Shown here: one piece after another, positions 1 to 15,805 of the stretch | How positions within the stretch are numbered: position 1 is the stretch's first letter | Layout of the letters: each line of letters starts with the position of its first letter | DNA from: a virus | Taxonomy: Duplodnaviria > Heunggongvirae > Uroviricota > Caudoviricetes | Virus record (IMG/VR): IMGVR_UViG_2541047722_000005 | Direction: 5' to 3' (one strand) | Length of the DNA stretch: 15,805 bases | The notes under the pieces: model-generated | Databases searched by the model: none | What the model saw: the letters and a program-made list of their open reading frames with translations, nothing else | What the model was told of the DNA's origin: nothing | Position numbers and translations under genes: made by a program

Positions 1-165
1 CTCATGCTGGCGAACCCAGACACGCAGAGTCTCCGGCGTACAGCCAATCTTTGGAGCAATGGAACAAATTGTCGCCCATTGTGAGTCATATTCGCTCTGA
101 CTTTCCAGAACCATACGGACTGCCCGTTGACGGACTTCGGGGGAAAAACGAGTATTTTTAGTCAT
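1..165 (-). CDS. IS3-family transposase OrfA, N-terminal 55 codons (partial, 3' end outside window)
   Basis: ATG at revcomp 163-165, SD-like AGAGG upstream on the minus strand (revcomp of ~173-177); frame runs open to the window edge; sequence recognised as IS3-family OrfA. Confidence 0.8.
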
Positions 166-219
166 CCTGTTTACCTCTTTCTCAGGAAGTTTAGTCTCCA
201 GGATTCCCGGGGCGGTTCA
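1..219 (-). mobile_element. IS3-family insertion sequence, left end only (IS629/IS1203-like); element continues beyond the window's left edge
   Basis: Minus strand 165..1 translates from ATG (revcomp of 163-165) as [55 protein letters not shown], which I recognise as the N-terminus of an IS3-family OrfA (HTH transposase subunit). The terminal sequence TGAACCGCCCCGGGAATCCTGGAGACTAAACTTCCTGAG (revcomp of 181-219) matches my memory of the IS629 terminal inverted repeat. Exact IS name is from recall, not a search. Confidence 0.8.
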
Positions 220-518
220 GCGCTGTATCGTCGCCGTATTCCCGCATTAACCATGACCGTAGCCCGACGGGGAATTCCTTCTGCGTGAGTGTGCGGGAAT
301 AATTAAAAACGATGCACACCGGGTTTTTACCGCGTTAATGATTCGCGGGTTTATCCCGGTGCGATGGTGGAAGAAACAGGAAGCTGTATTACAGAAAGTG
401 CTACTACTGTATCCCGATGCGATGTATGTAATGTGAGTCAGATAATGGCACAGGATGTGGTGATGTGGCAGTCTGGAACACAGGATATATTGTCAGAATA
501 AGACCCGTAGGAATAAAA

Positions 519-845
519 ATGAAAAGACGCCTTTTACTACTTTTTCTGTTATCTGTCCTGGCAGTGGGATGCTCGCAGCAAAAAGCTGATGAGCCCCGGC
601 AATTAGTGACGGTGTATCCACGATATCCGGAATATGCTGCAGCAAATTATATCAAGGGGCTGGTTGAGGTTAAGTTCGATATTGGTGCTGATGGGACTGT
701 GACACGGATCGTTTTTCTCCGCTCAGAGCCTCATAATTTGTTTCGTGATGAAGTGGTGAAGGCCATGGCGAAATGGCGATTTGAAAAGAATCGCCCCTGT
801 CAGGGAGTGAAGAGACAATTTATCTTTACGCCGTCACGTCCTTGA
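519..845 (+). CDS. Lipoprotein with TonB C-terminal-like domain (108 aa); moron-like accessory gene
   Basis: ATG 519 preceded by AGGA (509-512). N-terminus MKRRLLLLFLLSVLAVGC is a typical signal peptide with lipobox-like LAVG|C, Ser at +2. Residues ~30-100 (VYPRYPEYAAANYIKGLVEVKFDIGADGTVTRIVFLRSEPHNLFRDEVVKAMAKWRFE) align by eye with the E. coli TonB C-terminal domain as recalled (YP..A...I.G.V.VKFD...DG.V......S.P...F..EV..AM..WR.E). The upstream GTG at 465 in the ORF track is rejected as the start. Confidence 0.7.
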   Translation: MKRRLLLLFLLSVLAVGCSQQKADEPRQLVTVYPRYPEYAAANYIKGLVEVKFDIGADGTVTRIVFLRSEPHNLFRDEVVKAMAKWRFEKNRPCQGVKRQFIFTPSRP

Positions 846-937
846 TGCTTCCAGGTAGAGAGGGGCTGGAAGCAGGAGAAAAATGAAAGAGCCAGCGGTT
901 ATATTTTTGTCATGGCTGACGAGGAATGATGGAAGAA

Positions 938-985
938 GGCGTTGTATGCCACACAACGCCTCACTGTTCATTTCTTCTTTTTCTC
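938..985 (+). terminator. Candidate intrinsic terminator downstream of the lipoprotein gene
   Basis: Perfect 8-bp stem GGCGTTGT (938-945) / ACAACGCC (953-960) with 7-nt loop, followed by a T-rich tract tcactgttcatttcttctttttctc. The U-tract is interrupted, so strength is uncertain. Confidence 0.4.
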
Positions 986-1208
986 TGGTGGAACCCGATG
1001 AATAAGAGTTGCACTGGTTTCCGATGAGATGGCGATATACTCGGGCAAAGTATGCTGGCAGTTTTCCAACTGGTCAAAAATACCTGCTCTCGTCTGTTGC
1101 AATGCCTGCAGCATGCGGCGGCAATGCGCCTTGCTTTTACTAACCATCTTTCCTTCCTCTATCAGTCGCTGCGTGAACTCATCATGGAATACCAGGTAAA
1201 TGCGGATG

Positions 1209-1460
1209 TTATCGGTTTTGGCTACGCAGCATAGTACAAAACGGACAGGTGCATCCCGGGACGGGGGAGGCGTCACATGTCCCTGTGATGGTTGTTCCGG
1301 GTAATGTACTGTGTGGGGCATAAAAATGTCCGATAATTTTACTTTCTACCGCAGTTAGTTGATTCGTTGGTCCTGGTAGCACATTGGGCGAGGATTTAAA
1401 TGCCAGGCAACTGAAGGATGATGTCGCAAGGGAGATAGCGAGAATATTTCTGATTTTCAT
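1209..1460 (-). CDS. Hypothetical small secreted Cys-rich protein (83 aa precursor)
   Basis: Minus-strand ATG (revcomp 1458-1460) with AGAGG about 9 nt upstream. N-terminus MKIRNILAISLATSSFSCLA looks like a Sec signal peptide (basic n-region, hydrophobic core, small residue at -1). The mature part ends with a C-x6-C-x-C-x2-C cluster (GTCDASPVPGCTCPFC). No homologue recognised; it sits in the position and orientation that bor occupies in lambda. Confidence 0.35.
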   Translation of the reverse strand: MKIRNILAISLATSSFSCLAFKSSPNVLPGPTNQLTAVESKIIGHFYAPHSTLPGTTITGTCDASPVPGCTCPFCTMLRSQNR

Positions 1461-1608
1461 TTGATGATGCCTCTGTGTGAAATGACGGTAAACGACGCAC
1501 TTGTGCCGGCACATAATAGCAAGCACCATAATAGATCAGATTCGATTCTTGCTGTAAGTGATAATTATTCTCGTTTTCGGGTCCTTTCCGTCGATCCAAC
1601 AGGTTACG

Positions 1609-1620
1609 GGGCGGCGACCT
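1609..1620. other. cosN: cosN cohesive-end sequence (GGGCGGCGACCT)
   Basis: aggttacgGGGCGGCGACCTcgcgg at 1601-1625 matches my recollection of the lambda cos junction (right end ...AGGTTACG joined to left end GGGCGGCGACCTCGCGG...). It lies ~180 bp upstream of the Nu1 homologue, as in lambda. Confidence 0.85.
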
Positions 1621-1796
1621 CGCGGTTTTTCACTATTTATGAAAATTTTTCAGGGAAAATCGTGTCGGTACTTCTCGAATATAACTTTTTGTTTTTTTTA
1701 ATATTGCATCCGTAAAGGTCCGACATGAAAGTGTCCGAAAATGCCTTTTTCTGGCGTTTTCATGTCGGGCCTTGTATTTGATAATGGGTTGTTTTC
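1621..1796 (+). promoter_or_regulatory. cosB: cosB-like terminase-binding region between cosN and Nu1
   Basis: Position is equivalent to lambda cosB. Sequence follows lambda for ~30 bp after cosN (cgcgg.ttttc.ctatttatgaaaatttt) then diverges. It contains the inverted repeat CCGACATGAAA (1720-1730) / TTTCATGTCGG (1758-1768) and a partial direct copy GTCCGAAAATG (1733-1743), which are candidate small-terminase (R-site-like) binding elements. Confidence 0.55.
1720..1768. repeat. 11-bp inverted repeat CCGACATGAAA / TTTCATGTCGG inside cosB-like region
   Basis: Exact reverse-complement match read directly from the sequence; arms separated by 27 bp. Confidence 0.7.
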
Positions 1797-2345
1797 ATGA
1801 AGGTTAATAAAAAGAGGCTTGCCGAAATTTTCAACGTGGACCCGCGGACGATTGAACGCTGGCAGTCTCAGGGACTCCCTTGCGCCTCCAAAGGCAGTAA
1901 GGGCATTGAATCTGTATTTGATACTGCCATGGCAATTCAGTGGTATGCGCAGAGGGAAACTGATATCGAAAACGAAAAGCTCCGCAAAGAACTGGACGAT
2001 TTGCGTGCGGCAGCGGAGTCAGATTTACAACCCGGCACCATTGACTATGAACGCTACCGGCTCACAAAAGCGCAGGCAGATGCGCAGGAACTGAAAAATG
2101 CCCGTGAAGACGGAGTAGTGCTGGAAACTGAACTGTTTACCTTCATTCTGCAACGTGTGGCACAGGAGATTTCGGGGATACTTGTGCGTGTGCCGTTGAC
2201 ATTACAGCGTAAATATCCGGACATTTCACCATCACACCTTGATGTGGTGAAAACTGAAATCGCGAAAGCCTCCAATGTTGCAGCTAAGGCCGGTGAAAAC
2301 GTGGGCGGGTGGATCGATGATTTCAGACGCACAGAAGGCAGCTAA
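1797..2345 (+). CDS. nu1: Terminase small subunit (Nu1 homologue, 182 aa)
   Basis: [26 protein letters not shown]... aligns along its full length with lambda Nu1 as recalled (MEVNKKQLADIFGASIRTIQNWQEQG...; conserved [33 protein letters not shown]); N-terminal HTH; first gene after cos. Confidence 0.9.
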
Positions 2346-4245
2346 TGCAGCCGGTGCGATAGCTACAGGGCTTTTATCTCTCATTATTCCTGTTCCACTG
2401 ACGACAGTTCAGTGGGCCAATAAACATTATTACCTTCCTAAAGAGTCGTCTTATACCCCGGGGCGGTGGGAAACACTGCCGTTTCAGGTTGGCATCATGA
2501 ACTGTATGGGCAACGATCTGATTCGCACGGTTAACCTGATTAAATCTGCCCGTGTTGGTTATACAAAGATGTTGCTGGGAGTGGAGGCTTATTTTATTGA
2601 GCATAAATCACGCAACAGCCTTCTTTTTCAGCCCACGGACTCAGCTGCTGAAGATTTTATGAAATCTCATGTTGAGCCAACGATAAGGGATGTTCCTGCA
2701 TTGCTGGAGCTGGCTCCATGGTTCGGAAGAAAACACCGCGATAATACGCTCACCCTGAAGCGTTTTTCCTCCGGTGTGGGGTTCTGGTGTCTGGGTGGTG
2801 CGGCAGCAAAAAACTACCGTGAAAAATCCGTGGATGTGGTCTGTTATGACGAGCTTTCCTCGTTCGAACCGGATGTTGAAAAAGAGGGTTCGCCAACCCT
2901 GCTGGGGGATAAACGTATTGAGGGCTCTGTATGGCCAAAATCCATTCGCGGCTCGACGCCTAAAATCAAAGGCTCCTGCCAGATCGAAAAAGCCGCTAAC
3001 GAGTCGGCACACTTCATGCGTTTTTATGTGCCCTGTCCGCACTGTGGGGAGGAGCAGTATCTGAAATTTGGCGATGATGCCTCGCCTTTCGGTCTTAAGT
3101 GGGAGAAGAATAAGCCAGAAAGTGTTTTCTACCTTTGTGAGCATCATGGCTGTGTGATCCATCAGTCTGAGCTTGACCAGAGTAACGGGCGGTGGATCTG
3201 TGAAAACACGGGCATGTGGACCCGTGACGGCCTGATGTTTTTCAGCGCCCGGGGTGATGAAATTCCGCCGCCGCGCTCCATCACTTTCCATATCTGGACG
3301 GCGTACAGTCCGTTCACCACCTGGGTACAGATTGTCTATGACTGGCTGGATGCACTGAAAGATCCCAACGGCCTGAAAACCTTTGTGAACACCACGCTGG
3401 GCGAGACCTGGGAAGAGGCTGTGGGCGAAAAACTCGATCACCAGGTGCTGATGGATAAGGTTGTGCGTTACACGGCGGCGGTGCCTGCCCGGGTGGTTTA
3501 TCTGACGGCGGGCATTGACTCGCAGCGAAACCGTTTTGAGATGTATGTCTGGGGATGGGCTCCGGGAGAGGAAGCCTTTCTGGTGGATAAAATCATCATT
3601 ATGGGGCGTCCCGATGAGGAAGAGACGCTGTTACGTGTGGATGCGGCGATCAACAAAAAATACCGCCATGCAGACGGAACCGAAATGACCATTTCCCGTG
3701 TCTGCTGGGACATCGGGGGGATCGATGGCGAAATCGTTTATCAGAGGTCAAAAAAACACGGTGTTTTCCGGGTGCTGCCGGTAAAAGGCGCATCTGTCTA
3801 TGGCAAGCCGGTGATCACCATGCCAAAAACCCGCAATCAGCGGGGCGTGTATCTGTGTGAAGTGGGGACGGACACCGCAAAAGAAATTCTCTATGCCCGT
3901 ATGAAAGCCGATCCCACGCCTGTGGATGAAGCCACGTCGTATGCTATCCGTTTTCCTGATGATCCGGAGATTTTTTCGCAGACAGAGGCGCAGCAACTGG
4001 TCGCGGAAGAGCTTGTGGAGAAGTGGGAAAAAGGAAAGATGCGTCTGCTGTGGGATAACAAAAAGCGGCGTAACGAAGCGCTGGACTGCCTGGTGTATGC
4101 CTACGCGGCATTACGTGTGTCCGTGCAACGCTGGCAGCTTGATCTGGCTGTACTGGCAAAATCCCGGGAAGAAGAGACGACCCGGCCAACCCTTAAAGAA
4201 CTGGCAGCGAAGCTGTCCGGAGGAGTGAATGGTTACAGTCGCTGA
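2317..4245 (+). CDS. A: Terminase large subunit (gpA homologue, 642 aa from ATG 2317)
   Basis: Strong colinear similarity to lambda gpA as recalled ([80 protein letters not shown]). Start chosen at ATG 2317 (MISDAQK...), overlapping the Nu1 3' end by 29 nt as in lambda; the track ORF starts further upstream at 2275. Confidence 0.9.
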
Positions 4246-4435
4246 ACTGCAGGCGCTGCGTCAGGCGCGCCTTGATTTATTAACCGGTAAACGGGTGGTG
4301 TCTGTCCAGAAAGATGGTCGCAGAATTGAATATACGGCGGCTTCTCTGGATGAGCTTAACCGGGCGATCAATGATGCGGAGTCGGTACTGGGGACAACCC
4401 GGTGTCGCCGTCGTCCGCTGGGAGTGAGGTTATGA
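4229..4435 (+). CDS. W: Head-tail joining protein W homologue (68 aa)
   Basis: [40 protein letters not shown]... resembles lambda gpW as recalled ([23 protein letters not shown]). ATG 4229 overlaps the end of A. Confidence 0.85.
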   Translation: MVTVAELQALRQARLDLLTGKRVVSVQKDGRRIEYTAASLDELNRAINDAESVLGTTRCRRRPLGVRL

Positions 4436-6024
4436 AACGAACGCCTGTCCTGATTGATGTGAACGGCGTTCCGCTTCGTGAGAGTCTCAGCTACAACGGG
4501 GGCGGTGCAGGATTTGGCGGGCAAATGGCTGAGTGGTTGCCACCGGCGCAGAGTGCCGATGCGGCCCTGCTGCCCGCGTTGCGTCTGGGGAATGCCCGGG
4601 CAGATGATCTGGTGCGCAATAACGGAATAGCGGCTAATGCGGTGGCTCTGCATAAGGATCACATTGTCGGGCATATGTTTCTGATCAGCTACCGTCCGAA
4701 CTGGCGCTGGCTGGGGATGCGGGAGACCGCAGCAAAAAGCTTTGTCGATGAGGTGGAGGCGGCCTGGTCGGAATACGCCGAAGGGATGTTTGGCGAGATC
4801 GACGTGGAAGGAAAACGCACGTTCACGGAATTTATCCGTGAAGGTGTGGGCGTTCATGCGTTTAACGGCGAAATCTTTGTGCAGCCGGTCTGGGATACGG
4901 AAACCACGCAGTTATTCCGTACGCGTTTTAAAGCCGTGAGTCCGAAACGGGTGGACACGCCTGGACACGGTATGGGGAACCGTTTTCTGCGGGCCGGTGT
5001 GGAGGTCGATCGATATGGCCGTGCCGTCGCGTACCATATCTGTGAGGATGATTTTCCGTTCTCTGGTAGTGGACGATGGGAACGGATCCCGCGTGAACTT
5101 CCCACCGGGCGTCCGGCCATGCTGCATATTTTCGAGCCGGTGGAGGACGGGCAGACCCGTGGGGCTAATCAGTTTTACAGCGTCATGGAACGGCTGAAGA
5201 TGCTCGATTCCCTGCAGGCAACACAGCTTCAGTCGGCCATAGTGAAGGCGATGTATGCAGCGACGATTGAAAGTGAACTTGATACCGAAAAGGCCTTTGA
5301 ATATATCGCCGGCGCGCCACAGGAGCAGAAGGATAATCCGCTTATTAATATTCTGGAGAAGTTTTCCAGCTGGTATGACACGAATAACGTGACACTGGGC
5401 GGTGTCAAAATTCCGCACCTTTTCCCTGGTGATGATCTGAAACTACAGACTGCGCAGGATTCAGACAATGGATTTTCTGCGCTTGAACAGGCGCTGCTGC
5501 GGTATATCGCCGCCGGTCTTGGCGTTTCCTACGAACAGTTGTCCCGTGATTACTCGAAGGTCAGTTACTCAAGTGCCCGCGCCTCCGCCAATGAGTCGTG
5601 GCGCTATTTTATGGGGCGGCGAAAATTTATTGCGGCCCGGCTGGCCACGCAGATGTTTTCCTGCTGGCTGGAAGAGGCACTTCTTCGGGGGATTATTCGT
5701 CCGCCACGGGCACGTTTTGATTTTTATCAGGCGCGATCAGCCTGGTCACGGGCAGAGTGGATTGGTGCCGGAAGAATGGCCATTGACGGGCTCAAGGAAG
5801 TCCAGGAATCAGTGATGCGCATTGAGGCCGGACTGAGCACGTATGAGAAAGAGCTGGCGCTGATGGGCGAGGATTATCAGGACATTTTCCGCCAGCAGGT
5901 CAGGGAATCTGCTGAGCGGCAAAAAGCCGGACTCTCACGTCCGGTGTGGATAGCGCAGGCGTATCAGCAGCAGATAGCGGAGAGTCGCAGGCCGGAAGAG
6001 GAGACAACACCACGTGAGACGTAA
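4432..6024 (+). CDS. B: Portal protein (gpB homologue, 530 aa from ATG 4432)
   Basis: Extensive similarity to lambda gpB as recalled (NARADDLVRNNG.AANA, FEPVEDGQTRGAN.FYSVME, LQSAIVKAMYAATIESELDT, LLRYIAAGLGVSYEQLSR, GRMAIDGLKEVQE). ATG 4432 overlaps the W stop (ATGA). Confidence 0.9.
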   Translation: MKRTPVLIDVNGVPLRESLSYNGGGAGFGGQMAEWLPPAQSADAALLPALRLGNARADDLVRNNGIAANAVALHKDHIVGHMFLISYRPNWRWLGMRETAAKSFVDEVEAAWSEYAEGMFGEIDVEGKRTFTEFIREGVGVHAFNGEIFVQPVWDTETTQLFRTRFKAVSPKRVDTPGHGMGNRFLRAGVEVDRYGRAVAYHICEDDFPFSGSGRWERIPRELPTGRPAMLHIFEPVEDGQTRGANQFYSVMERLKMLDSLQATQLQSAIVKAMYAATIESELDTEKAFEYIAGAPQEQKDNPLINILEKFSSWYDTNNVTLGGVKIPHLFPGDDLKLQTAQDSDNGFSALEQALLRYIAAGLGVSYEQLSRDYSKVSYSSARASANESWRYFMGRRKFIAARLATQMFSCWLEEALLRGIIRPPRARFDFYQARSAWSRAEWIGAGRMAIDGLKEVQESVMRIEAGLSTYEKELALMGEDYQDIFRQQVRESAERQKAGLSRPVWIAQAYQQQIAESRRPEEETTPRET

Positions 6025-7519
6025 TCTTTCACACATTATTGCCGCAGCATTCAATGAACCGCTGCTTCTGGAGCCCGCCTATGCGCGGGTTTTCTTTTGC
6101 GCGCTCGGGCGCGAGATGGGGGCAGCAAGTCTTTCGGTACCACAACAGCAGGTACAGTTTGATGCTCCCGGAATGCTGGCTGAAACGGACGAGTACATGG
6201 CCGGAGGTAAACGACCGGCCCGTGTTTACCGGGTGGTGAACGGTATTGCTGTACTGCCGGTGACCGGCACGCTGGTGCACCGGCTGGGTGGTATGCGGCC
6301 ATTTTCCGGAATGACAGGCTATGACGGCATTGTCGCCTGTCTTCAGCAGGCAATGGCGGATAGCCAGGTGCGGGGCGTACTGCTGGACATTGACAGTCCG
6401 GGCGGGCAGGCCGCCGGCGCGTTTGACTGCGCTGACATGATTTACCGCCTCCGTCAGCAGAAGCCGGTCTGGGCACTGTGCAATGACACGGCCTGTTCTG
6501 CAGCCATGCTGCTGGCGTCGGCCTGCTCCCGACGGCTGGTTACCCAGACATCCCGTATCGGCTCCATTGGCGTGATGATGAGCCATGTCAGCTATGCCGG
6601 TCATCTGGCGCAGGCCGGTGTGGATATCACGCTGATTTACTCAGGGGCGCACAAGGTGGATGGCAATCAGTTTGAAGCGTTGCCGGCAGAGGTTCGCCAG
6701 GACATGCAGCAGCGGATTGATGCGGCGCGCCGGATGTTTGCCGAAAAAGTGGCGATGTATACCGGTCTGTCTGTTGATGCCGTCACGGGAACAGAGGCTG
6801 CCGTTTTTGAAGGTCAGTCCGGCATTGAGGCCGGGCTGGCGGATGAATTAATCAATGCGTCGGATGCCATCAGTGTGATGGCCACGGCGCTGAACAGTAA
6901 TGTCAGAGGAGGCACTATGCCGCAATTAACTGCAACGGAAGCCGCCGCGCAGGAGAACCAGCGAGTGATGGGGATCCTGACATGCCAGGAAGCGAAAGGA
7001 CGTGAACAGCTTGCCACGATGCTGGCAGGACAACAGGGCATGAGCGTTGAACAGGCCCGGGCGATTCTGGCCGCGGCGGCACCGCAGCAGCCGGTGGCAT
7101 CCACGCAGAGTGAAGCCGATCGCATTATGGTGTGTGAAGAAGCGAACGGTCGTGAACAACTGGCGGCAACGCTGGCGGCGATGCCGGAGATGACGGTGGA
7201 AAAAGCCCGCCCGATCCTGGCTGCTTCACCGCAGGCGGATGCCGGACCATCACTCCGTGATCAGATCATGGCACTGGATGAGGCAAAAGGGGCTGAGGCG
7301 CAGGCTGAACAGCTGGCTGCCTGCCCGGGAATGACAGTGGAGAGCGCCCGGGCTGTGCTGGCTGCGGGATCAGGTAAGGCAGAACCGGTCTCTGCATCCA
7401 CAACCGCCATGTTTGAACATTTCATGGCGAACCATTCACCGGCAGCGGTACAGGGTGGCGTGGCACAGACGTCAGCAGACGGTGATGCGGACGTGAAAAT
7501 GCTCATGGCCATGCCATGA
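6014..7519 (+). CDS. C: Head maturation protease / minor capsid protein C homologue (501 aa), with C-terminal scaffold (Nu3-like) portion
   Basis: GTG start 6014 (VRRNLSHIIAAAFNEPLLLEPAYARVFFCAL matches lambda gpC N-terminus ...NLPHIASMAFNEPLMLEPAYARVFFCAL as recalled). Central region has S49/ClpP-like features (DIDSPGG, GAFDCAD, PVWAL.ND..CSA..LLASA.SRRLVTQT.R.GSIGVMM.H). About 60 aa longer than lambda C because of a tandem repeat expansion in the C-terminal part. Confidence 0.88.
   Translation: MRRNLSHIIAAAFNEPLLLEPAYARVFFCALGREMGAASLSVPQQQVQFDAPGMLAETDEYMAGGKRPARVYRVVNGIAVLPVTGTLVHRLGGMRPFSGMTGYDGIVACLQQAMADSQVRGVLLDIDSPGGQAAGAFDCADMIYRLRQQKPVWALCNDTACSAAMLLASACSRRLVTQTSRIGSIGVMMSHVSYAGHLAQAGVDITLIYSGAHKVDGNQFEALPAEVRQDMQQRIDAARRMFAEKVAMYTGLSVDAVTGTEAAVFEGQSGIEAGLADELINASDAISVMATALNSNVRGGTMPQLTATEAAAQENQRVMGILTCQEAKGREQLATMLAGQQGMSVEQARAILAAAAPQQPVASTQSEADRIMVCEEANGREQLAATLAAMPEMTVEKARPILAASPQADAGPSLRDQIMALDEAKGAEAQAEQLAACPGMTVESARAVLAAGSGKAEPVSASTTAMFEHFMANHSPAAVQGGVAQTSADGDADVKMLMAMP
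6704..7519 (+). CDS. nu3: Possible nested in-frame scaffold protein (Nu3-like), translated from an internal start of C
   Basis: By analogy with lambda, where Nu3 is the C-terminal in-frame portion of C. In-frame ATG 6704 (MQQRIDAARRMFAEKV...) with AGAGG 11 nt upstream; aligns with the lambda Nu3 start region (MDATRQMFAQKV) as recalled. ATG 6734 is an alternative. The start is inferred, not demonstrated. Confidence 0.35.
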   Translation: MQQRIDAARRMFAEKVAMYTGLSVDAVTGTEAAVFEGQSGIEAGLADELINASDAISVMATALNSNVRGGTMPQLTATEAAAQENQRVMGILTCQEAKGREQLATMLAGQQGMSVEQARAILAAAAPQQPVASTQSEADRIMVCEEANGREQLAATLAAMPEMTVEKARPILAASPQADAGPSLRDQIMALDEAKGAEAQAEQLAACPGMTVESARAVLAAGSGKAEPVSASTTAMFEHFMANHSPAAVQGGVAQTSADGDADVKMLMAMP

Positions 7520-7555
7520 AGTCAGTGCTGACCATCAATAGGAGGTTTTTACAAT

Positions 7556-7903
7556 ATGGTGACGAAAACCATCACTGAACAGCGTGCGGAAGTACGTATT
7601 TTTGCCGGTAATGATCCGGCTCATACCGCCACAGGCAGCAGCGGGATTTCCTCGCCAACACCGGCACTGACGCCCCTGATGCTGGATGAAGCCACCGGGA
7701 AACTGGTGGTCTGGGACGGACAGAAAGCCGGTAGTGCGGTTGGCATACTGGTACTGCCGCTTGAAGGCACAGAGACGGCGCTGACGTATTACAAGTCGGG
7801 AACCTTTGCGACGGAGGCAATCCACTGGCCTGAAAGTGTGGATGAACACAAAAAGGCCAACGCCTTTGCTGGCAGTGCCCTGAGTCACGCGGCGCTGCCG
7901 TAA
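7556..7903 (+). CDS. D: Head decoration protein (gpD homologue, 115 aa)
   Basis: AGGAGG (7540-7545) then ATG 7556; DPAHTAT...TPLMLD...KLV.WDG...AVGIL...LT.YKSGTF..E...WPE...K...AFAG.A matches lambda gpD as recalled. Confidence 0.9.
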   Translation: MVTKTITEQRAEVRIFAGNDPAHTATGSSGISSPTPALTPLMLDEATGKLVVWDGQKAGSAVGILVLPLEGTETALTYYKSGTFATEAIHWPESVDEHKKANAFAGSALSHAALP

Positions 7904-7910
7904 CACGTTA

Positions 7911-7932
7911 TCAGGCCACCGCGGTGGCCTGA
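7911..7932. repeat. 22-bp perfect palindrome TCAGGCCACCG|CGGTGGCCTGA in the D-E intergenic region
   Basis: Read directly from the sequence; GC-rich, centred on CCGCGG; not followed by a clean T-run. Confidence 0.8.
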
Positions 7933-7960
7933 CTGATTTCTGAATGAAAGGAACTGATTT

Positions 7961-8989
7961 ATGGGATTGTTTACGACCCGCCAGTTACTCGGTTATACCG
8001 AACAAAAAGTTAAATTTCGTGCGCTGTTTCTGGAGCTGTTTTTCCGCCGTACGGTGAATTTCCATACCGAAGAGGTGATGCTGGACAAAATTACCGGAAA
8101 AACGCCGGTGGCGGCCTATGTCTCCCCGGTTGTTGAAGGAAAAGTGCTGCGTCATCGTGGTGGTGAAACCCGCGTGTTGCGTCCGGGCTACGTCAAGCCG
8201 AAACACGAATTTAATTACCAGCAGGCGGTTGAGCGCCTTCCTGGTGAAGATCCATCTCAACTGAATGATCCGGCTTACCGCCGTCTGCGTATCATTACCG
8301 ATAACCTCAAACAGGAAGAGCACGCGATTGTCCAGGTGGAAGAAATGCAGGCGGTAAATGCTGTGTTGTATGGCAAATACACCATGGAAGGAGACCAGTT
8401 CGAGAAAATTGAGGTCGATTTTGGCAGGTCGACGAAGAATAACATCACTCAGGGTAGTGGTAAGGAGTGGTCAAAACAGGATCGTGACACGTTCGATCCT
8501 ACACATGATATTGACCTCTACTGCGACCTGGCCAGCGGTCTTGTGAATATTGCCATTATGGACGGTACCGTCTGGCGTCTTCTGAATGGTTTTAAGCTGT
8601 TCCGCGAAAAACTGGATACCCGTCGCGGTTCAAATTCTCAACTCGAAACGGCAGTGAAAGATCTGGGCGCAGTGGTGTCCTTCAAGGGGTATTACGGCGA
8701 TCTGGCCATTGTGGTGGCGAAAACGTCTTATATAGCAGAAGACGGTATCGAAAAACGTTATCTTCCAGATGGCATGCTGGTTCTGGGGAATACTGCTGCA
8801 GATGGGATCCGTTGTTACGGTGCCATTCAGGATGCTCAGGCGTTGTCCGAAGGTGTGGTGGCCTCTTCCCGTTATCCGAAACACTGGCTGACGGTAGGGG
8901 ATCCCGCCCGTGAATTTACCATGACGCAGTCCGCGCCGCTGATGGTGTTGCCGGACCCGGATGAGTTTGTGGTGGTACAGGTGAAATAA
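7961..8989 (+). CDS. E: Major capsid protein (gpE homologue, 342 aa)
   Basis: AAGGA 9 nt upstream of ATG 7961; similarity across the whole length to lambda gpE as recalled (PGYVKPKHE, RLP.EDP..L.DPAYRR.RII, AIVQVEEMQAV.AVL.GKYTM, KLDTRRGSNS.LETAVKDLG, RYPK.W.T.GDPAREFTM.QSAPLM.L.DPDEFV.VQ). Confidence 0.92.
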   Translation: MGLFTTRQLLGYTEQKVKFRALFLELFFRRTVNFHTEEVMLDKITGKTPVAAYVSPVVEGKVLRHRGGETRVLRPGYVKPKHEFNYQQAVERLPGEDPSQLNDPAYRRLRIITDNLKQEEHAIVQVEEMQAVNAVLYGKYTMEGDQFEKIEVDFGRSTKNNITQGSGKEWSKQDRDTFDPTHDIDLYCDLASGLVNIAIMDGTVWRLLNGFKLFREKLDTRRGSNSQLETAVKDLGAVVSFKGYYGDLAIVVAKTSYIAEDGIEKRYLPDGMLVLGNTAADGIRCYGAIQDAQALSEGVVASSRYPKHWLTVGDPAREFTMTQSAPLMVLPDPDEFVVVQVK

Positions 8990-8997
8990 TCCGTGAG

Positions 8998-9026
8998 CGG
9001 GGGCGAAATGCCCCCGTGTCTTTTTT
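8998..9026 (+). terminator. Candidate intrinsic terminator/attenuator immediately downstream of E
   Basis: 7-bp GC-rich stem CGGGGGC (8998-9004) / GCCCCCG (9010-9016), 5-nt loop GAAAT, then TGTC followed by TTTTTT (9021-9026). Lies between the E stop (8989) and the FI start (9041). Confidence 0.55.
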
Positions 9027-9040
9027 CACAGGGGGCTGAT

Positions 9041-9415
9041 ATGGCAACGAAAGAGCAAAATCTGAAACGGCTTGATGAACTGGCCCTGATTCTGGGGCGT
9101 GAGCCGGATATATCCGGGAGTGCCGCAGAGATAGCGCAGCGGGTGGCAGAATGGGAAGAGGAAATGCAGTCATCCGGCGATGATGTACAGGTTATGAATA
9201 TGGATATCCGGGAGCGGGAAACCGCGGCTCATGATGTTCGTGAGGAAACATCCGGCGCGTTAACGCGCATCAGAGTTCTGACCTGCCTCCATCTCTGTGG
9301 CGTTGATGGTGAAACGGGGGAATCCGTTGAGCTTGCGGATGTTGGTCGGGTGATTCTGATTATGTCCTCAGATGCAAAAACACACGTTGATGGTGGAATG
9401 GCTGTTTATGCGTGA
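9041..9415 (+). CDS. FI: DNA-packaging/head assembly protein FI homologue (124 aa from ATG 9041)
   Basis: Position between E and FII; GGGGG 6 nt upstream of ATG 9041; acidic protein. Sequence similarity to lambda FI is weak by my recollection, so the call is mainly positional. Confidence 0.6.
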   Translation: MATKEQNLKRLDELALILGREPDISGSAAEIAQRVAEWEEEMQSSGDDVQVMNMDIRERETAAHDVREETSGALTRIRVLTCLHLCGVDGETGESVELADVGRVILIMSSDAKTHVDGGMAVYA

Positions 9416-9761
9416 TTTTCAGAATGCCTTTGATGCCGCCCTTGCCGGGGTGGACAGTACGATTGTTGAAGTGATGGGCATCAGTGCGCAGTTCACCTCC
9501 GGTGCACAGCGTGGCGGCGAGGTTCATGGCGTTTTTGACGATCCGGAGTCGCTGGGTTTTGCCAGTAGTGGGATCCGTATTGAAGGAAGTAACCCGTCAT
9601 TATTTGTGCTTACGGATACGGTTTGTGCTGTACGGCGTGGTGACACGCTGACCATTAACGGCGAGATGTTCTGGGTGGACCGTGTTTCTCCGGATGACGG
9701 AGGGAGTTGTTATCTCTGGCTCAACCGGGGGCAACCACCTGCCGCCAGCCGTCGCCGCTGA
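9408..9761 (+). CDS. FII: Head-tail connector protein FII homologue (117 aa from ATG 9408)
   Basis: MRDFQNAFDAAL...GVFDDPE...G.R.EGS.PSLFV.TD.V...RRGDTLTI....FWVDRVSPDDGGSC.LWL.RG.PPA..RRR matches lambda FII as recalled, with the C-terminal third nearly identical. ATG 9408 overlaps the FI stop. Confidence 0.85.
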   Translation: MRDFQNAFDAALAGVDSTIVEVMGISAQFTSGAQRGGEVHGVFDDPESLGFASSGIRIEGSNPSLFVLTDTVCAVRRGDTLTINGEMFWVDRVSPDDGGSCYLWLNRGQPPAASRRR

Positions 9762-9772
9762 AAGGGGGATGT

Positions 9773-10351
9773 ATGGCCATAAAAGGTCTTGAGCAGGCCG
9801 TTGAAAACCTCAGCCGTATCAGCAAAACGGCAGTGCCTGGTGCCGCCGCAATGGCCATTAACCGCGTTGCTTCATCCGCGATATCGCAGTCGGCGTCACT
9901 GGTTGCCCGTGAGACAAAGGTACGCCGGAAACTGGTAAAGGAAAGGGCCAGGCTGAAAAGGGCCACGGTCAAAAATCCGCAGGCCAGAATCAAAGTTAAC
10001 CGGGGGGATTTGCCCGTAATCAGGCTGGGTAACGCGCGGGTTGTCCTGTCCCGACGCAGGCGTCGTAAAAAGGGGCAGCGTTCATCCCTGAAAGGTGGCG
10101 GCAGCGTGCTTGTGGTGGGAAACCGTCGTATTCCCGGCGCGTTTATTCAGCAACTGAAAAATGGCCGGTGGCATGTCATGCAGCGTGTGGCCGGGAAAAA
10201 CCGTTACCCCATTGATGTGGTGAAAATCCCGATGGCGGTGCCGCTGACCACGGCGTTTAAACAGAATATTGAGCGGATACGGCGTGAGCGTCTTCCGAAA
10301 GAGCTGGGCTATGCGCTGCAGCATCAACTGAGAATGGTAATAAAGCGATGA
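9773..10351 (+). CDS. Z: Tail assembly/completion protein Z (192 aa)
   Basis: MAIKGLEQAVENLSRISKTAVPGAAAMAINRVASSAISQSAS... appears nearly identical to lambda gpZ as recalled. ATG 9773; the upstream part of the track ORF is rejected. Confidence 0.92.
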   Translation: MAIKGLEQAVENLSRISKTAVPGAAAMAINRVASSAISQSASLVARETKVRRKLVKERARLKRATVKNPQARIKVNRGDLPVIRLGNARVVLSRRRRRKKGQRSSLKGGGSVLVVGNRRIPGAFIQQLKNGRWHVMQRVAGKNRYPIDVVKIPMAVPLTTAFKQNIERIRRERLPKELGYALQHQLRMVIKR

Positions 10352-10743
10352 AACATACTGAACTCCGTGCAGCCGTACTGGATGCACTGGAGAAGCATGA
10401 CACCGGGGCGACGCTTTTTGATGGTCGCCCTGCTGTTTTTGATGAGGAAGATTTTCCGGCAATTGCCGTTTATCTCACCGGCGCTGAATACACGGGCGAA
10501 GAGCTGGACAGCGATACCTGGCAGGCGGAGCTGCATATTGAAGTTTTCCTGCCTGCTCAGGTGCCGGATTCAGAGCTGGATTCGTGGATGGAGTCCCGGA
10601 TTTATCCGGTGATGAGCGATATCCCGGCACTGTCAGATTTGATCACCAGTATGGTGGCCAGTGGCTATGACTACCGGCGCGACGATGATGCGGGCCTGTG
10701 GAGTTCAGCCGATCTGACTTATGTCATTACCTATGAAATGTGA
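10348..10743 (+). CDS. U: Tail terminator protein U (131 aa)
   Basis: [68 protein letters not shown]... is near-identical to lambda gpU as recalled; ATG overlaps the Z stop. Confidence 0.93.
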
Positions 10744-10750
10744 GGACGAT

Positions 10751-11491
10751 ATGCCAACACCAAATCCTCTGGCACCGGTGAAAGGGGCCGGGACCACACT
10801 GTGGGTTTATAACGGGAGCGGCGACCCTTATGCAAACCCGCTTTCAGACAATGACTGGTCGCGTCTGGCAAAAATTAAAGACCTGACGCCCGGCGAACTG
10901 ACCGCTGAGTCCTATGACGACAGTTATCTCGATGATGAAGATGCGGACTGGACCGCGACCGGGCAGGGGCAGAAATCCGCCGGAGATACCAGCTTCACGC
11001 TGGCGTGGATGCCCGGAGAGCAGGGGCAGCAGGCGCTGCTGGCGTGGTTTAATGAAGGTGATACCCGTGCCTATAAAATCCGCTTCCCGAACGGCACGGT
11101 CGATGTGTTCCGTGGCTGGGTCAGCAGTATCGGTAAGGCGGTGACGGCGAAGGAAGTGATCACCCGTACGGTGAAGGTCACCAATGTGGGCCGTCCGTCA
11201 ATGGCAGAAGATCGCAGTACGGTGACGGCGGCAACCGGTATGACCGTGACGCCTGCCAGCTCCTCGGTGGTGAAAGGGCAGAGCACCACGCTGACCGTGG
11301 CCTTCCAGCCGGAGGGCGCAACTGACAAGAGCTTCCGTGCGGTGTCAGCGGATAAAACAAAAGCCACCGTGTCGGTCAGTGGTATGACCATCACCGTGAA
11401 CGGCGTTGCTGCAGGCAAGGTCAACATTCCGGTTGTATCCGGTAATGGTGAACTTGCTGCGGTTGCAGAAATCACTGTCACCGACAGTTAA
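10751..11491 (+). CDS. V: Major tail tube protein V (246 aa from ATG 10751)
   Basis: [119 protein letters not shown]... is near-identical to lambda gpV as recalled, including the C-terminal Ig-like domain. Confidence 0.93.
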
Positions 11492-11506
11492 TCCGGAGAG
11501 TCAGCG

Positions 11507-11929
11507 ATGTTCCTGAAAACCGAATCATTTGAACATAACGGCGTGACCGTCACGCTTTCTGAACTGTCAGCCCTGCAGCGTATTGAGCATCTCGCCCTGA
11601 TGAAACAGCAGGCAGAACAGGCGGAGTCAGACAGCAACCGGCAGGTTACTGTGGAAGACGCCATCAGAACCGGTGCTTTTGTGGTGGCGATGTCCCTGTG
11701 GCATAACCATCCGCAGAAGACAAAGCAGCCTTCCATGAATGAAGCCGTTAAACAGATTGAGCAGGAAGTGCTTACCACCTGGCCCGCGGAGGCAATTTCT
11801 CATGCTGAAAACGTGGTGTACCGGCTGTCCGGTATGTATGGGTTTGTGGTGAATGATGCCCCTGACCAGGCAGAGGACTCCGGGCCTGCAGAGCCTGTTT
11901 CTGCGGGAAAGTGTTCGACGGTGAGCTGA
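11507..11929 (+). CDS. G: Tail assembly chaperone G (140 aa)
   Basis: MFLKTESFEHNGVTVTLSELSALQRIEHLALMK.QAEQAESDSNR... is near-identical to lambda gpG as recalled; GGAGAG RBS upstream. Confidence 0.93.
   Translation: MFLKTESFEHNGVTVTLSELSALQRIEHLALMKQQAEQAESDSNRQVTVEDAIRTGAFVVAMSLWHNHPQKTKQPSMNEAVKQIEQEVLTTWPAEAISHAENVVYRLSGMYGFVVNDAPDQAEDSGPAEPVSAGKCSTVS
11905..11911 (+). other. Programmed -1 ribosomal frameshift slippery heptamer G GGA AAG (G to G-T fusion)
   Basis: GGGAAAG at 11905-11911 is in the G frame as G-GGA-AAG, 6 codons before the G stop; the -1 frame continues from 11911 as the T ORF. Same heptamer and position as the lambda G/T frameshift. Confidence 0.85.
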
Positions 11930-12345
11930 GTTTTGCCCTGAAACTGGCGCGAGAGATGGGGCGACCTGACTGGCGCGCCATGCTTGCCGGGATGTCATCC
12001 ACGGAGTATGCCGACTGGCACCGCTTTTACAGTACCCATTATTTTCATGATGTTCTGCTGGATATGCACTTTTCCGGGCTGACGTACACTGTGCTCAGCC
12101 TGTTTTTCAGCGATCCGGATATGCATCCGCTGGATTTCAGTTTGCTGAACCGGCGTGAGGATGACGAAGAGCCTGAAGATGATGTGCTGATGCAGAAAGC
12201 GGCAGGGCTTACCGGAGGCGTCCGCTTTGACCCGGACGGAAATGAAGTTATCCCCGCTTCCCCGGATATGGCGGGCATGACGGAGGATGACGTAATGCTG
12301 ATGACAGTATCAGAAGGGATCGCAGGAGGAGTCCGGTATGGCTGA
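11911..12345 (+). CDS. T: T portion of the gpG-T frameshift fusion tail assembly chaperone (expressed only as G-T via -1 frameshift)
   Basis: -1 frame ORF beginning at the slippery site (VFDGELSFALKLAREMGRPDWRAMLAGMSSTEYADWHRFY...), with no independent start expected; overlaps the H start. Confidence 0.85.
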   Translation: MFDGELSFALKLAREMGRPDWRAMLAGMSSTEYADWHRFYSTHYFHDVLLDMHFSGLTYTVLSLFFSDPDMHPLDFSLLNRREDDEEPEDDVLMQKAAGLTGGVRFDPDGNEVIPASPDMAGMTEDDVMLMTVSEGIAGGVRYG

Positions 12346-14899
12346 ACCGGTAGGCGATCTGGTCGTTGATTTAAGTCTGGATGCGGCCAGATTTGACGAG
12401 CAGATGGCCAGAGTCAGGCGTCATTTTTCCGGTACGGAAAGTGATGCGAAAAAAACAGCGGCAGTCGTTGAACAGTCGCTGAGCCGACAGGCGCTGGCTG
12501 CACAGAAAGCGGGGATTTCCGTCGGGCAGTATAAAGCCGCCATGCGTATGCTGCCTGCACAGTTCACCGACGTGGCCACGCAGCTTGCAGGCGGGCAAAG
12601 CCCGTGGCTGATCCTGCTGCAACAGGGTGGTCAGGTTAAGGACTCCTTCGGCGGGATGATCCCCATGTTCCGGGGGCTTGCCGGTGCGATCACCCTGCCG
12701 ATGGTCGGGGCCACCTCGCTGGCGGTGGCGACCGGTGCGCTGGCGTATGCCTGGTATCAGGGTAACTCAACCCTGTCCGATTTCAACAAAACGCTGGTCC
12801 TTTCCGGCAATCAGTCGGGTCTGACGGCAGATCGTATGCTGGTCCTGTCCAGAGCCGGGCAGGCGGCAGGGCTGACGTTTAACCAGACCAGCGAGTCACT
12901 CAGCGCACTGGTTAAGGCGGGAGTAAGCGGTGAGGCTCAGATTGCATCCATCAGCCAGAGTGTGGCGCGTTTCTCCTCTGCATCCGGCGTGGAGGTGGAC
13001 AAGGTCGCTGAAGCCTTCGGGAAGCTGACCACTGACCCGACGTCGGGGCTGACGGCGATGGCGCGCCAGTTCCATAACGTAACGGCGGAGCAGATTGCGT
13101 ATGTTGCTCAGTTGCAGCGTTCCGGCGATGAATCCGGGGCATTGCAGGCGGCGAACGAGGCCGCAACGAAAGGGTTTGATGACCAGACCCGACGCCTGAA
13201 AGAGAACATGGGCACGCTGGAAACCTGGGCAGACAGGACAGCACGGGCATTCAAATCCATGTGGGATGCGGTGCTGGATATTGGTCGTCCTGATACCGCT
13301 CAGGAGATGCTGATTAAGGCAGAGGCTGCGTTTAAGAAAGCGGACGACATCTGGAATCTGCGCAAGGATGATTATTTTGTTAACGATGAAGCGCGGGCGC
13401 GTTACTGGGATGATCGTGAAAAGGCCCGTCTTGCGCTTGAAGCCGCCCGAAAGAAGGCTGAGCAGCAGACTCAACAGGACAAAAATGCGCAGCAGCAGAG
13501 CGATACCGAAGCGTCACGGCTGAAATATACCGAAGAGGCGCAGAAGGCTTACGAACGGCTGCAGACGCCGCTGGAGAAATATACCGCCCGTCAGGAAGAA
13601 CTGAACAAGGCACTGAAAGACGGGAAAATCCTGCAGGCGGATTACAACACGCTGATGGCGGCGGCGAAAAAGGATTATGAAGCGACGCTGAAAAAGCCGA
13701 AACAGTCCGGCGTGAAGGTGTCTGCGGGCGATCGTCAGGAAGACAGTGCTCATGCTGCTCTGCTGACGCTTCAGGCAGAACTCCGGACGCTGGAGAAGCA
13801 TGCCGGAGCAAATGAGAAAATCAGCCAGCAGCGCCGGGATTTGTGGAAGGCGGAGAGTCAGTTCGCGGTACTGGAGGAGGCGGCGCAACGTCGCCAGCTG
13901 TCTGCACAGGAGAAATCCCTGCTGGCGCATAAAGATGAGACGCTGGAGTACAAACGCCAGCTGGCTGCGCTTGGCGACAAGGTTACGTATCAGGAGCGCC
14001 TGAACGCGCTGGCGCAGCAGGCGGATAAATTCGCACAGCAGCAACGGGCAAAACGGGCCGCCATTGATGCGAAAAGCCGGGGGCTGACTGACCGGCAGGC
14101 AGAACGGGAAGCCACGGAACAGCGCCTGAAGGAACAGTATGGCGATAATCCGCTGGCGCTGAATAACGTCATGTCAGAGCAGAAAAAGACCTGGGCGGCT
14201 GAAGACCAGCTTCGCGGGAACTGGATGGCAGGCCTGAAGTCCGGCTGGAGTGAGTGGGAAGAGAGCGCCACGGACAGTATGTCGCAGGTAAAAAGTGCAG
14301 CCACGCAGACCTTTGATGGTATTGCGCAGAATATGGCGGCGATGCTGACCGGCAGTGAACAGAACTGGCGCAGCTTCACCCGTTCCGTGCTGTCCATGAT
14401 GACAGAAATTCTGCTTAAGCAGGCAATGGTGGGGATTGTCGGGAGTATCGGCAGCGCTATTGGCGGGGCTGTTGGTGGCGGCGCATCCGCGTCAGGCGGT
14501 ACAGCCATTCAGGCCGCTGCGGCGAAACTCCATTTTGCAACCGGAGGATTTACGGGAACCGGCGGCAAATATGAGCCAGCGGGGATTGTTCACCGTGGTG
14601 AATTTGTCTTCACGAAGGAGGCAACCAGCCGGATTGGCGTGGGAAATCTCTACCGGCTGATGCGCGGCTATGCCACCGGCGGTTATGTCGGTGGCACCGG
14701 AAGTCCGGCGCAAATGCGGCGTTCAGAGGGTATCAGGTTTGAGCAGAACAACAACGTGGTGATTCAGAACGACGGTACGAATGGTCTGCCAGGTCCACAG
14801 ATGATGAAGGCGGTGTATGACATGGCCCGCAAGGGTGCCCGTGATGAAATCCAGGCACAGATGCGCGATGGTGGTCTGTTCTCCGGAGGTGGACGATGA
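12338..14899 (+). CDS. H: Tail tape measure protein H (853 aa)
   Basis: 853 aa, same length as lambda gpH; N-terminus MAEPVGDLVVDLSLDAARFDEQMARVRRHF... and most of the length match lambda gpH as recalled. ATG 12338 overlaps the T stop. Confidence 0.93.
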   Translation: MAEPVGDLVVDLSLDAARFDEQMARVRRHFSGTESDAKKTAAVVEQSLSRQALAAQKAGISVGQYKAAMRMLPAQFTDVATQLAGGQSPWLILLQQGGQVKDSFGGMIPMFRGLAGAITLPMVGATSLAVATGALAYAWYQGNSTLSDFNKTLVLSGNQSGLTADRMLVLSRAGQAAGLTFNQTSESLSALVKAGVSGEAQIASISQSVARFSSASGVEVDKVAEAFGKLTTDPTSGLTAMARQFHNVTAEQIAYVAQLQRSGDESGALQAANEAATKGFDDQTRRLKENMGTLETWADRTARAFKSMWDAVLDIGRPDTAQEMLIKAEAAFKKADDIWNLRKDDYFVNDEARARYWDDREKARLALEAARKKAEQQTQQDKNAQQQSDTEASRLKYTEEAQKAYERLQTPLEKYTARQEELNKALKDGKILQADYNTLMAAAKKDYEATLKKPKQSGVKVSAGDRQEDSAHAALLTLQAELRTLEKHAGANEKISQQRRDLWKAESQFAVLEEAAQRRQLSAQEKSLLAHKDETLEYKRQLAALGDKVTYQERLNALAQQADKFAQQQRAKRAAIDAKSRGLTDRQAEREATEQRLKEQYGDNPLALNNVMSEQKKTWAAEDQLRGNWMAGLKSGWSEWEESATDSMSQVKSAATQTFDGIAQNMAAMLTGSEQNWRSFTRSVLSMMTEILLKQAMVGIVGSIGSAIGGAVGGGASASGGTAIQAAAAKLHFATGGFTGTGGKYEPAGIVHRGEFVFTKEATSRIGVGNLYRLMRGYATGGYVGGTGSPAQMRRSEGIRFEQNNNVVIQNDGTNGLPGPQMMKAVYDMARKGARDEIQAQMRDGGLFSGGGR

Positions 14900-15225
14900 A
14901 AACCTTCCGCTGGAAAGTGAAACCCGGGATGGATGTGACATCGGCTCCTTCCGTCAGGGAGGTGCGCTTTGGTGATGGCTATTCCCAGCGTGCGCCTGCC
15001 GGGCTGAACGCTGACCTGAAAACGTACAGCGTGACGCTGTCTGTCTCCCGTGAGGAGGCCACGGCGCTGGAGTCGTTTCTGGCTGAGCACGGGGGCTGGA
15101 AGGCCTTTCTGTGGACGCCGCCTTATGGTTACAGGCAGATAAAGGTGACCTGCGCAAAATGGTCGTCGCGGGTCAGTATGCTGCGTGTTGAGTTCAGCGC
15201 AGAGTTTGAACAGGTGGTGAACTGA
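14896..15225 (+). CDS. M: Minor tail protein M (109 aa)
   Basis: MKTFRWKVKPGMDV...VRFGDGYSQRAPAGLNA.LKTYSVTLSV.REEAT.LESFL.EHGGWK.FLWTPPY..RQIKVTCAKWSSRVSMLRVEFSAEFEQVVN matches lambda gpM as recalled; ATGA overlap with H. Confidence 0.93.
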   Translation: MKTFRWKVKPGMDVTSAPSVREVRFGDGYSQRAPAGLNADLKTYSVTLSVSREEATALESFLAEHGGWKAFLWTPPYGYRQIKVTCAKWSSRVSMLRVEFSAEFEQVVN

Positions 15226-15805
15226 TGCAGGATATCCGGCAGGAAACATTGAATGAATGCACCCGTGCGGAGCAGTCGGCCAGCGTGGTGCTCTGGGAAA
15301 TCGATCTGACAGAGGTCGGTGGAGAACGTTATTTTTTCTGTAATGAGCAGAACGAAAAAGGTGAGCCGGTCACCTGGCAGGGGCGACAGTATCAGCCGTA
15401 TCCCATTCAGGGGAGTAGTTTTGAACTGAATGGCAAAGGCACCAGTACGCGCCCCACGCTGACGGTTTCTAACCTGTACGGTATGGTCACCGGGATGGTG
15501 GAAGATCTGCAGAGTCTGGTCGGCGGAACGGTGGTCAGGCGTAAGGTTTACGCCCGTTTTCTGGATGCGGTGAACTTCGTCAACGGAAACAGCGACGCCG
15601 ATCCGGAGCAGGAGGTGATCAGCCGCTGGCGCATCGAGCAGTGCAGCGAACTGAGTGCGGTCAGTGCCTCCTTTGTACTGTCCACACCGACGGAAACGGA
15701 TGGTGCCGTTTTTCCGGGGCGCATCATGCTGGCTAATACCTGCACCTGGACCTATCGCGGTGATGAGTGCGGTTATCACGGTCCGGCGGTCGCGGATGAA
15801 TATGA
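15225..15805 (+). CDS. L: Minor tail protein L, N-terminal ~193 codons (partial; continues past the window end)
   Basis: ATG 15225 overlaps the M stop (TGATG); translation MQDIRQETLNECTRAEQSASVVLWEIDLTEVGGERYFFCNEQNEKGEPVTWQGRQYQPYPIQGS... matches lambda gpL as recalled; frame is open to the window edge. Confidence 0.9.
   Translation, partial: MQDIRQETLNECTRAEQSASVVLWEIDLTEVGGERYFFCNEQNEKGEPVTWQGRQYQPYPIQGSSFELNGKGTSTRPTLTVSNLYGMVTGMVEDLQSLVGGTVVRRKVYARFLDAVNFVNGNSDADPEQEVISRWRIEQCSELSAVSASFVLSTPTETDGAVFPGRIMLANTCTWTYRGDECGYHGPAVADEY

Follow-up and report, generated by a model that had tools for sequence, protein, structure and literature searches.

A cohesive-end site identical to that of bacteriophage 21 in a prophage-form segment found in Escherichia coli chromosomes

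The cohesive-end site (cos) of bacteriophage lambda comprises the packaging-termination subsite cosQ, the nicking site cosN with its cohesive end, and the terminase-binding region cosB, in which R3 occupies bp 50-65 from the left end (PMC9026076) and is followed by I1, an inverted R2, and R1. The start codon of the small terminase (TerS) gene stands ~189-191 bp from the left end, and the lambda TerS belongs to the Pfam family Phage_Nu1. Phage 21 has a cos of the same design together with a gene 1/gene 2 terminase (M81255, X02501, OL657228). Its R-box core is CATGTCGG where that of lambda is CGTTTCC, the recognition helix of its TerS reads RTIERWQS where that of lambda reads RTIQNWQE, and packaging by the two phages is mutually exclusive (PMC4669245). 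The discrimination exceeds 1000-fold, and the R sites together with the recognition helix of TerS are considered responsible for it (PMC4669245). Phage N15, which has a third specificity, resembles lambda in its cosQ and cosN, but its cosB is 'simple': it contains a TerS site where R3 would lie and no I1, R2, or R1 (PMC4669245).

Identity and chromosomal setting of the window

We compared a 15,805-nt stretch of DNA (the whole stretch analyzed, hereafter the window) with GenBank phage records by blastn. Window positions 1560-1800 are 100% identical over their full length to the cos of Escherichia phage 21 (M81255.1, bases 118-358), and every annotated phage 21 subsite can be mapped onto them. 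The virion-oriented phage 21 records X02501, M23775, and OL657228 also match at 100%, each beginning at window position 1609. In the complete phage 21 genome (OL657228.1), bases 1-14197 are 99.8% identical to window 1609-15805, and the right end of phage 21 is 100% identical to window 220-1608. Because both the left-end and the right-end sequences of phage 21 are matched in this arrangement, the window represents a phage-21-type genome in its circularly permuted (prophage) form. On the strength of these matches, we consider it almost certain that the region is the bacteriophage 21 cos and that a phage-21-like prophage in the E. coli chromosome carries it. This cos is already known and has been dissected experimentally, and there is no new packaging specificity here. 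An earlier note made from the sequence had invoked the relationship between lambda and phage 21 as an analogy, which proved to be literally right: what it described is the cos of phage 21 itself.

Complete E. coli genomes such as EC21GDE043, FY26, BEN5202, and NCTC11151 contain all of window 1-1800 in the chromosome at 100%. Of 5,426 complete E. coli genomes, 583 carry the cosB21 segment (1640-1800), Nissle 1917 and the type strain being two of them, whereas at least 80% of window 1-1800 is present in only 419.

At the left edge of the window, positions 1-219 are the terminal part of an IS3-family insertion sequence that has entered the prophage between iss/bor and a TonB-like gene. RefSeq annotation describes the transposase of this element with a programmed frameshift and an 'AL1L pseudoknot'. 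Phage 21 and PhiR63_2 are without the element, and their homology to the window begins at 220. The TonB-like gene (519-845, + strand) encodes a protein with a TonB C-terminal domain and lies between the lysis genes and cos, as an accessory ('moron') gene; it is also present in phage 21 (OL657228 41842-42168), and E. coli annotation calls it 'TonB family protein'. Far downstream, the sole GGGAAAG heptamer of the window (11905-11911, + strand) falls at the 3' end of a G-like ORF (11507-11929) and at the start of an overlapping T-like ORF (11911-12345), an arrangement comparable to the G/GT -1 programmed frameshift of the lambda tail assembly chaperone.

Compared with phage 21, the window copy differs in its prophage form, in the IS3-family element at 1-219, and in a threonine for alanine at residue 179 of its TerS, gp1. 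The chromosomal prophage context and the transposase could be taken as signs that the prophage is defective and that its cos is decayed, resembling that of phage 21 while no longer serving in packaging. The count of 419 genomes that keep at least 80% of 1-1800, against 583 with cosB21, points the same way. Against this, 1560-1800 does not differ at any position from the cos of viable phage 21, TerS is one residue off, and the segment from the large terminase (TerL) gene to the tape-measure gene is 99.8% identical to phage 21 with its reading frames intact. As for the insertion sequence, it is ~1.4 kb upstream of cosN, in a region of accessory ('moron') genes that is non-essential. A decayed cos is thus an unlikely explanation, and in what follows we treat the region as the phage 21 cos.

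Anatomy of cos and comparison with lambda

GenBank annotates protein_bind features for R4/cosQ, cosN, I2, R3, I1, R2, R1, and I0 of phage 21, which we mapped onto the window by constant offsets (M81255 coordinate +1442; OL657228 coordinate +1608). Identities to lambda were taken from a three-way alignment scored segment by segment, which contains one 1-bp gap inside cosB and one more upstream of cosQ. The resulting subsites are given below, with R-box boundaries that the authors of PMC4669245 themselves call 'only approximate'.

1578-1589: 'R4' box enclosing cosQ (M81255 annotation)
1579-1585, + strand: cosQ, the packaging-termination subsite, GGGTCCT (OL657228 42902-42908; role from PMC4669245); lambda identity 7/7
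1579-1608: the 30 bp to the left of the cohesive end; lambda identity 27/30
1592-1638: cosN in the wider sense, the terminase nicking region (M81255 annotation)
1609-1620, + strand: cosN core, the 12-nt cohesive end GGGCGGCGACCT (OL657228 starts at 1609, and its bases 1-12 are the cohesive end); lambda identity 12/12, and 31/32 over 1599-1630
1621-1650: the 30 bp to the right of the cohesive end; lambda identity 27/30
1638-1652, + strand: I2, an IHF-like site adjoining cosN (M81255 196-210); lambda identity 13/15
1658-1673, + strand: R3 of cosB, AATCGTGTCGGTACTT, spanning bp 50-65 from the left end and critical as a TerS site (M81255, OL657228); lambda identity 11/16
1682-1694, - strand: I1 of cosB, AAACAAAAAGTTA, the site of IHF binding and DNA bending, between R3 and R2 (M81255, OL657228); lambda identity 11/13
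1715-1730, - strand: R2 of cosB, TTTCATGTCGGACCTT, inverted relative to R3 and R1 and containing CCGACATGAAA (M81255, OL657228); lambda identity 9/16
1731-1757: spacer between R2 and R1; lambda identity 13/27
1758-1773, + strand: R1 of cosB, TTTCATGTCGGGCCTT, containing TTTCATGTCGG (M81255, OL657228); lambda identity 8/16
1780-1794, - strand: I0, an IHF-like site overlapping the gene 1 ribosome binding site at 1786-1789 (M81255 338-352)
Last 23 bp before the start codon: lambda identity 6/23
1653-1796: cosB overall; lambda identity 53% (77/145)

The distance of the cosQ heptamer from the nick, ~23-29 bp leftward, is that of a lambda-like cos. The top strand would be nicked between 1608 and 1609, a position that we take from the 100% identity to the experimentally defined end of phage 21. 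Although part of cos, cosQ falls just outside the interval 1601-1796 to which the earlier note had been confined. An 84-aa, TTG-initiated ORF (1461-1715, + strand) spans cosQ, cosN, and R3 and is listed as 'hypothetical protein' in PV340572/PV340574 and other records. Since virion DNA would split this ORF at cosN, it is very probably a spurious gene call over cos.

The AT-rich leader between the cohesive end and the ATG at 1797 carries the repeats. Their order, R3-I1-R2-R1 with R2 inverted, is that described in PMC9026076, and together with the position of R3 at bp 50-65 it identifies the element as a complex (tripartite) cosB, which sets it apart from the simple cosB of N15. The lambda-like character proposed for the 12-nt cohesive end and ~30 bp on either side was borne out by the alignment, as was the divergence of the downstream terminase-binding region, which sets in at ~1653 and extends to the gene 1 start. 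The term 'non-lambda cosB', however, is accurate for the sequences of the boxes and not for the design, because the R3-I1-R2-R1 architecture and its spacing are common to both phages. The near-gapless alignment indicates that the layout has been kept while the box sequences differ. At the two specificity positions within R3, bp 56 (window 1664) is G here versus T in lambda, and bp 59 (window 1667) is G here versus C in lambda.

The I sites were compared with the IHF consensus WATCAANNNNTTR. I1 has one mismatch to it, so that an IHF site is predicted there from sequence and annotation together, and I0 likewise contains a one-mismatch match, AAACAACCCATTA, at 1782-1794. I2 was missed by the consensus scan at up to one mismatch. 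Window-wide, the scan at this threshold returned 8 matches versus 8.7 expected, and single matches are correspondingly weak. Two of the 8 fall within the 145-bp cosB, where 0.08 would be expected (Poisson P = 0.003); only this clustering inside cosB is significant. Phage 21 growth was reportedly found by Feiss, Frackman, and Sippy in 1985 to be strictly IHF-dependent, unlike that of lambda.

The inverted repeat of R2 and R1

The inverted repeats that first drew attention to the region, CCGACATGAAA at 1720-1730 and TTTCATGTCGG at 1758-1768, were found where they had been placed and are the cores of R2 and R1. Counting both strands, the 15.8-kb window contains the 11-mer TTTCATGTCGG only twice, once on the plus strand (1758-1768) and once on the minus strand (1720-1730). 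Shuffling gave an expectation of 0.03 matches, and none of 200 shuffles reached two. This exact count, set against the shuffle expectation, shows that the pair is real and no chance pattern. Over their full lengths R2 and R1 are identical at 15 of 16 positions, and a repeat search extended the inverted symmetry to 27-nt arms (1715-1741 and 1747-1773). The partial direct copy that had also been reported corresponds to R3, which matches R1 at 11 of 16 positions and has the core TGTCGG in common with it.

Such symmetry could in principle reflect mainly a nucleic-acid hairpin rather than only a pair of protein sites. The hairpin might be a DNA cruciform or an RNA stem-loop in the late-mRNA leader; the latter, lying directly ahead of the gene 1 ribosome binding site, would act in processing, stability, or translation control. 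We folded both strands of the region from phage 21, lambda, PhiR5_1, phi80, YDC107, and HK225. The plus-strand RNA of 1705-1800 forms a ~25-bp hairpin of -37.7 kcal/mol (z = -6.1; z = -4.0 for the lambda equivalent) that ends 13 nt ahead of the ribosome binding site. The pairing runs on through the 27-nt spacer, and in phage 21 the plus strand is more stable than the minus strand (-25.7 kcal/mol), a difference attributable to G-U pairs in the spacer. The dyad symmetry of R2-spacer-R1 is not confined to phage 21: lambda, phi80, HK225, and some enterobacterial prophages have it too. In lambda, phi80, HK225, and several of those prophages, though not in every lineage, the spacer pairs more than its shuffled versions do. 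When only the spacer was shuffled, in 14 sequences standing for 12 lineages, the combined Fisher P values were 0.0009 for the plus strand and 0.02 for the minus strand.

These observations are offset by several others. The outer stem follows automatically from two inverted copies of one protein site, and published genetics already account for the boxes as TerS sites. Five of the 12 lineages (L014, L016, L022, L040, and L041; P = 0.24 to 0.78) show no contribution from the spacer. Because the pairing signal appears on both strands in most lineages, it shows no specificity for RNA, and lambda, 21, and PhiR5_1 have homologous inner stems (GAAAA...TTTTT), which do not constitute independent evidence. 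In Rfam, nothing in the window attained the gathering score of any family, and the only two hits within 1500-1900 are at chance level (E ~0.06). A terminator scan returned a weak site with an 8-pair stem at 1750-1769 and the tail CCTTGTATTT; what follows the long R2-R1 hairpin is just a weak T run, which leaves a terminator role unsupported. The terminator and promoter scan of 1300-2400 was uninformative and yielded weak consensus matches only, including a sigma-70-like match at 1757-1785 and stems formed by cosN and R1 themselves.

The pairing excess is therefore modest, non-universal, present on both strands, and partly a matter of shared ancestry, and we reject a hairpin as the main explanation of the inverted repeat, considering it very unlikely. 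It is just as improbable that the dyad symmetry across the 59-bp R2-spacer-R1 segment (1715-1773) represents a selected hairpin, for example a late-leader RNA that tunes terminase expression or serves as an RNase III target; were this the case, cosB would double as an mRNA element. We regard the pairing as a weak residual dyad symmetry, and R2 and R1 as binding sites for TerS.

The terminase and its packaging specificity

Two overlapping genes follow cosB and encode the terminase.

1797-2345, + strand: gene 1, encoding the small terminase TerS (gp1), 181/182 residues identical to 21 gp1
2317-4245, + strand: gene 2, encoding the large terminase TerL (gp2), which nicks cosN (Pfam GpA_ATPase and GpA_nuclease; M81255, OL657228)

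The sole difference between this gp1 and the reference protein (M81255, X02501, OL657228) is the Thr179 noted above, encoded at 2331-2333, where the reference has Ala. Residue 179 lies within the C-terminal tail, the TerL-binding part of TerS. The protein matches Pfam Phage_Nu1 (PF07471) over residues 1-163 of the 164-position profile with E = 1.9e-81 (271.9 bits versus a cut-off of 30). Its identity to lambda Nu1 is 52%, in keeping with the clear divergence that the earlier note had remarked on. The DNA-binding domain (residues 1-54) is identical at 54 of 54 positions to chain A of PDB entry 7LWR, an entry tied to gp1 by sequence identity alone, and the lambda DNA-binding domain structures 1J9I and 6HN7 are more distant matches. 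The recognition helix, residues 17-24, places Glu20 and Ser24 where the lambda helix has Gln20 and Glu24.

To compare recognition helices with R boxes more broadly, we aligned cos-terS regions, taken from other phages and from 50 genomic loci, over the stretch from cosN to the start codon. The alignment is essentially gapless through R1 in all of the regions collected. Helix and R-box core covary without exception over 13 lineages: RTIQNWQ[E/D] helices accompany CGTTTCC-type boxes in 10 lineages, and RTI[E/D]RWQ[S/T/A] helices accompany CATGTC[G/A]-type boxes in the other 3, namely phage 21, PhiR5_1, and a Buttiauxella ferragutiae prophage. This covariation supports the idea that the repeats are binding sites for the helix-turn-helix of the small terminase, and it agrees with the published genetics. 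The proposal to that effect made from the sequence is also in line with GenBank, which annotates R3, R2, and R1 as gp1 (TerS) boxes.

Escherichia phage PhiR5_1 and the Buttiauxella prophage resemble phage 21 in having CATGTC(G/A) R-box cores, RTI(E/D)RWQ(T/A) helices, and the R3-I1-R2-R1 layout. They differ from it in their TerS proteins, whose identity to 21 gp1 is only 64% for PhiR5_1 (65% by tblastn) and 54% for the Buttiauxella prophage. In the Buttiauxella locus (L014; NZ_LXEQ01000045.1, bases ~280-503), R boxes of the CATGTCGG type and the helix RTIERWQA stand beside a different cohesive end, GGGCGTAAGACG, and the leader from R1 to the terS start codon is ~26 nt longer. The combination of 21-class boxes and helix with another cohesive end indicates that 21-type cosB recognition has there been joined to another cosN.

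Two other sets of loci deserve mention. A Providencia alcalifaciens contig (L013; NZ_ABXW01000008.1), which ends 92 nt upstream of the TerS gene, encodes a TerS that is 73% identical to 21 gp1 and carries a third type of helix, RTITAWQS, comparable to the RTVTAWQS of PDB 7LXS; its R-box-like sequences have TCCTTTCT in common. This locus probably represents a further packaging specificity. Short or low-coverage contigs (L030-L037, L042, L049, and L053) in assemblies of Kitasatospora, Chromatium, Paenibacillus, Oceanobacillus, Psychrobacter, Bradyrhizobium, and Shewanella, among others, are 99.9-100% identical to the left end of phage lambda. Identity at this level in unrelated bacteria marks them as almost certainly contamination with lambda control DNA.

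The specificity of the present cos can be approached through published data on the identical sequence. In the helper-packaging experiments of PMC4669245 (Table 6), self combinations yielded ~1.2-1.75 per cell, with a self-packaging helper yield of 1.24, versus 1e-4 to 8e-4 for cross combinations. That paper, which relays the mapping second-hand, places contacts and clashes between bp 56 and 59 of R3 and TerS residues 20 and 24. In the same paper, lambda Glu24 is described as clashing with the G-C pair at bp 56 of phage 21 R3, and the G at window 1664 agrees with its 'GC bp 56 of R3-21'. By identity to the sequence used in that work, this cos would have phage 21 packaging specificity, distinguished more than 1000-fold from that of lambda (PMC4669245), and the suggestion that its specificity is unlike that of lambda is upheld to this extent.

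A cosB recognized by lambda terminase might have been expected from the shared architecture and spacing and from the identical cosQ and cosN. High identity to the lambda R1-R3/I1 elements had been named as the result that would overturn the original reading, but the R boxes are only 50-69% identical to those of lambda and differ from them at bp 56 and 59, where G replaces T and C, respectively. Cross-packaging at the 1e-4 level, together with the Glu24 clash as described in PMC4669245, also speaks against recognition by lambda terminase. Lambda specificity is refuted by the published helper-packaging data on this exact sequence, and we assign it a negligible probability.

The packaging mechanism known for lambda and 21 can be applied, by sequence identity, to the phage 21 cos of the window. 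Dimers of gp1 would dock their winged helix-turn-helix domains on the cosB R boxes of concatemeric DNA. An IHF bend at I1 would bring R3 and the inverted R2 to one TerS dimer, with R1 in an accessory role; in the model of PMC9026076, the IHF-induced bend is of 180 degrees, and the TerS dimer on R3 and R2 anchors TerL over cosN. So anchored over cosN, ~50 bp leftward, gp2 would nick twice, 12 bp apart and at 1608/1609 on the top strand, to generate the GGGCGGCGACCT cohesive ends. The terminase would then keep the cosB-bearing end, dock on the prohead, and translocate DNA rightwards, and packaging would be ended by cosQ (1579-1585) acting with cosN and I2 of the next cos. With cosQ, cosN, and I2 common to lambda, specificity would reside in the R-box core, most of all at bp 56 and 59, as matched by helix residues 20 and 24. 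This match of box core and recognition helix would give each phage a packaging preference of more than 1000-fold for its own DNA over that of the other.

The lambda/21 cos pair is a classic model of how a packaging enzyme recognizes its own DNA, and the discovery value of this locus is accordingly small. Its value for annotation is more practical, as cosB21 in E. coli genomes is either unannotated or overlapped by a spurious 'hypothetical protein'. The pairing of recognition helix and R box provides a simple sequence rule for telling lambda-type from 21-type packaging specificity in lambdoid prophages, and predictions of specificity made in this way bear on the compatibility of helper phages and phage-inducible chromosomal islands (PICIs).
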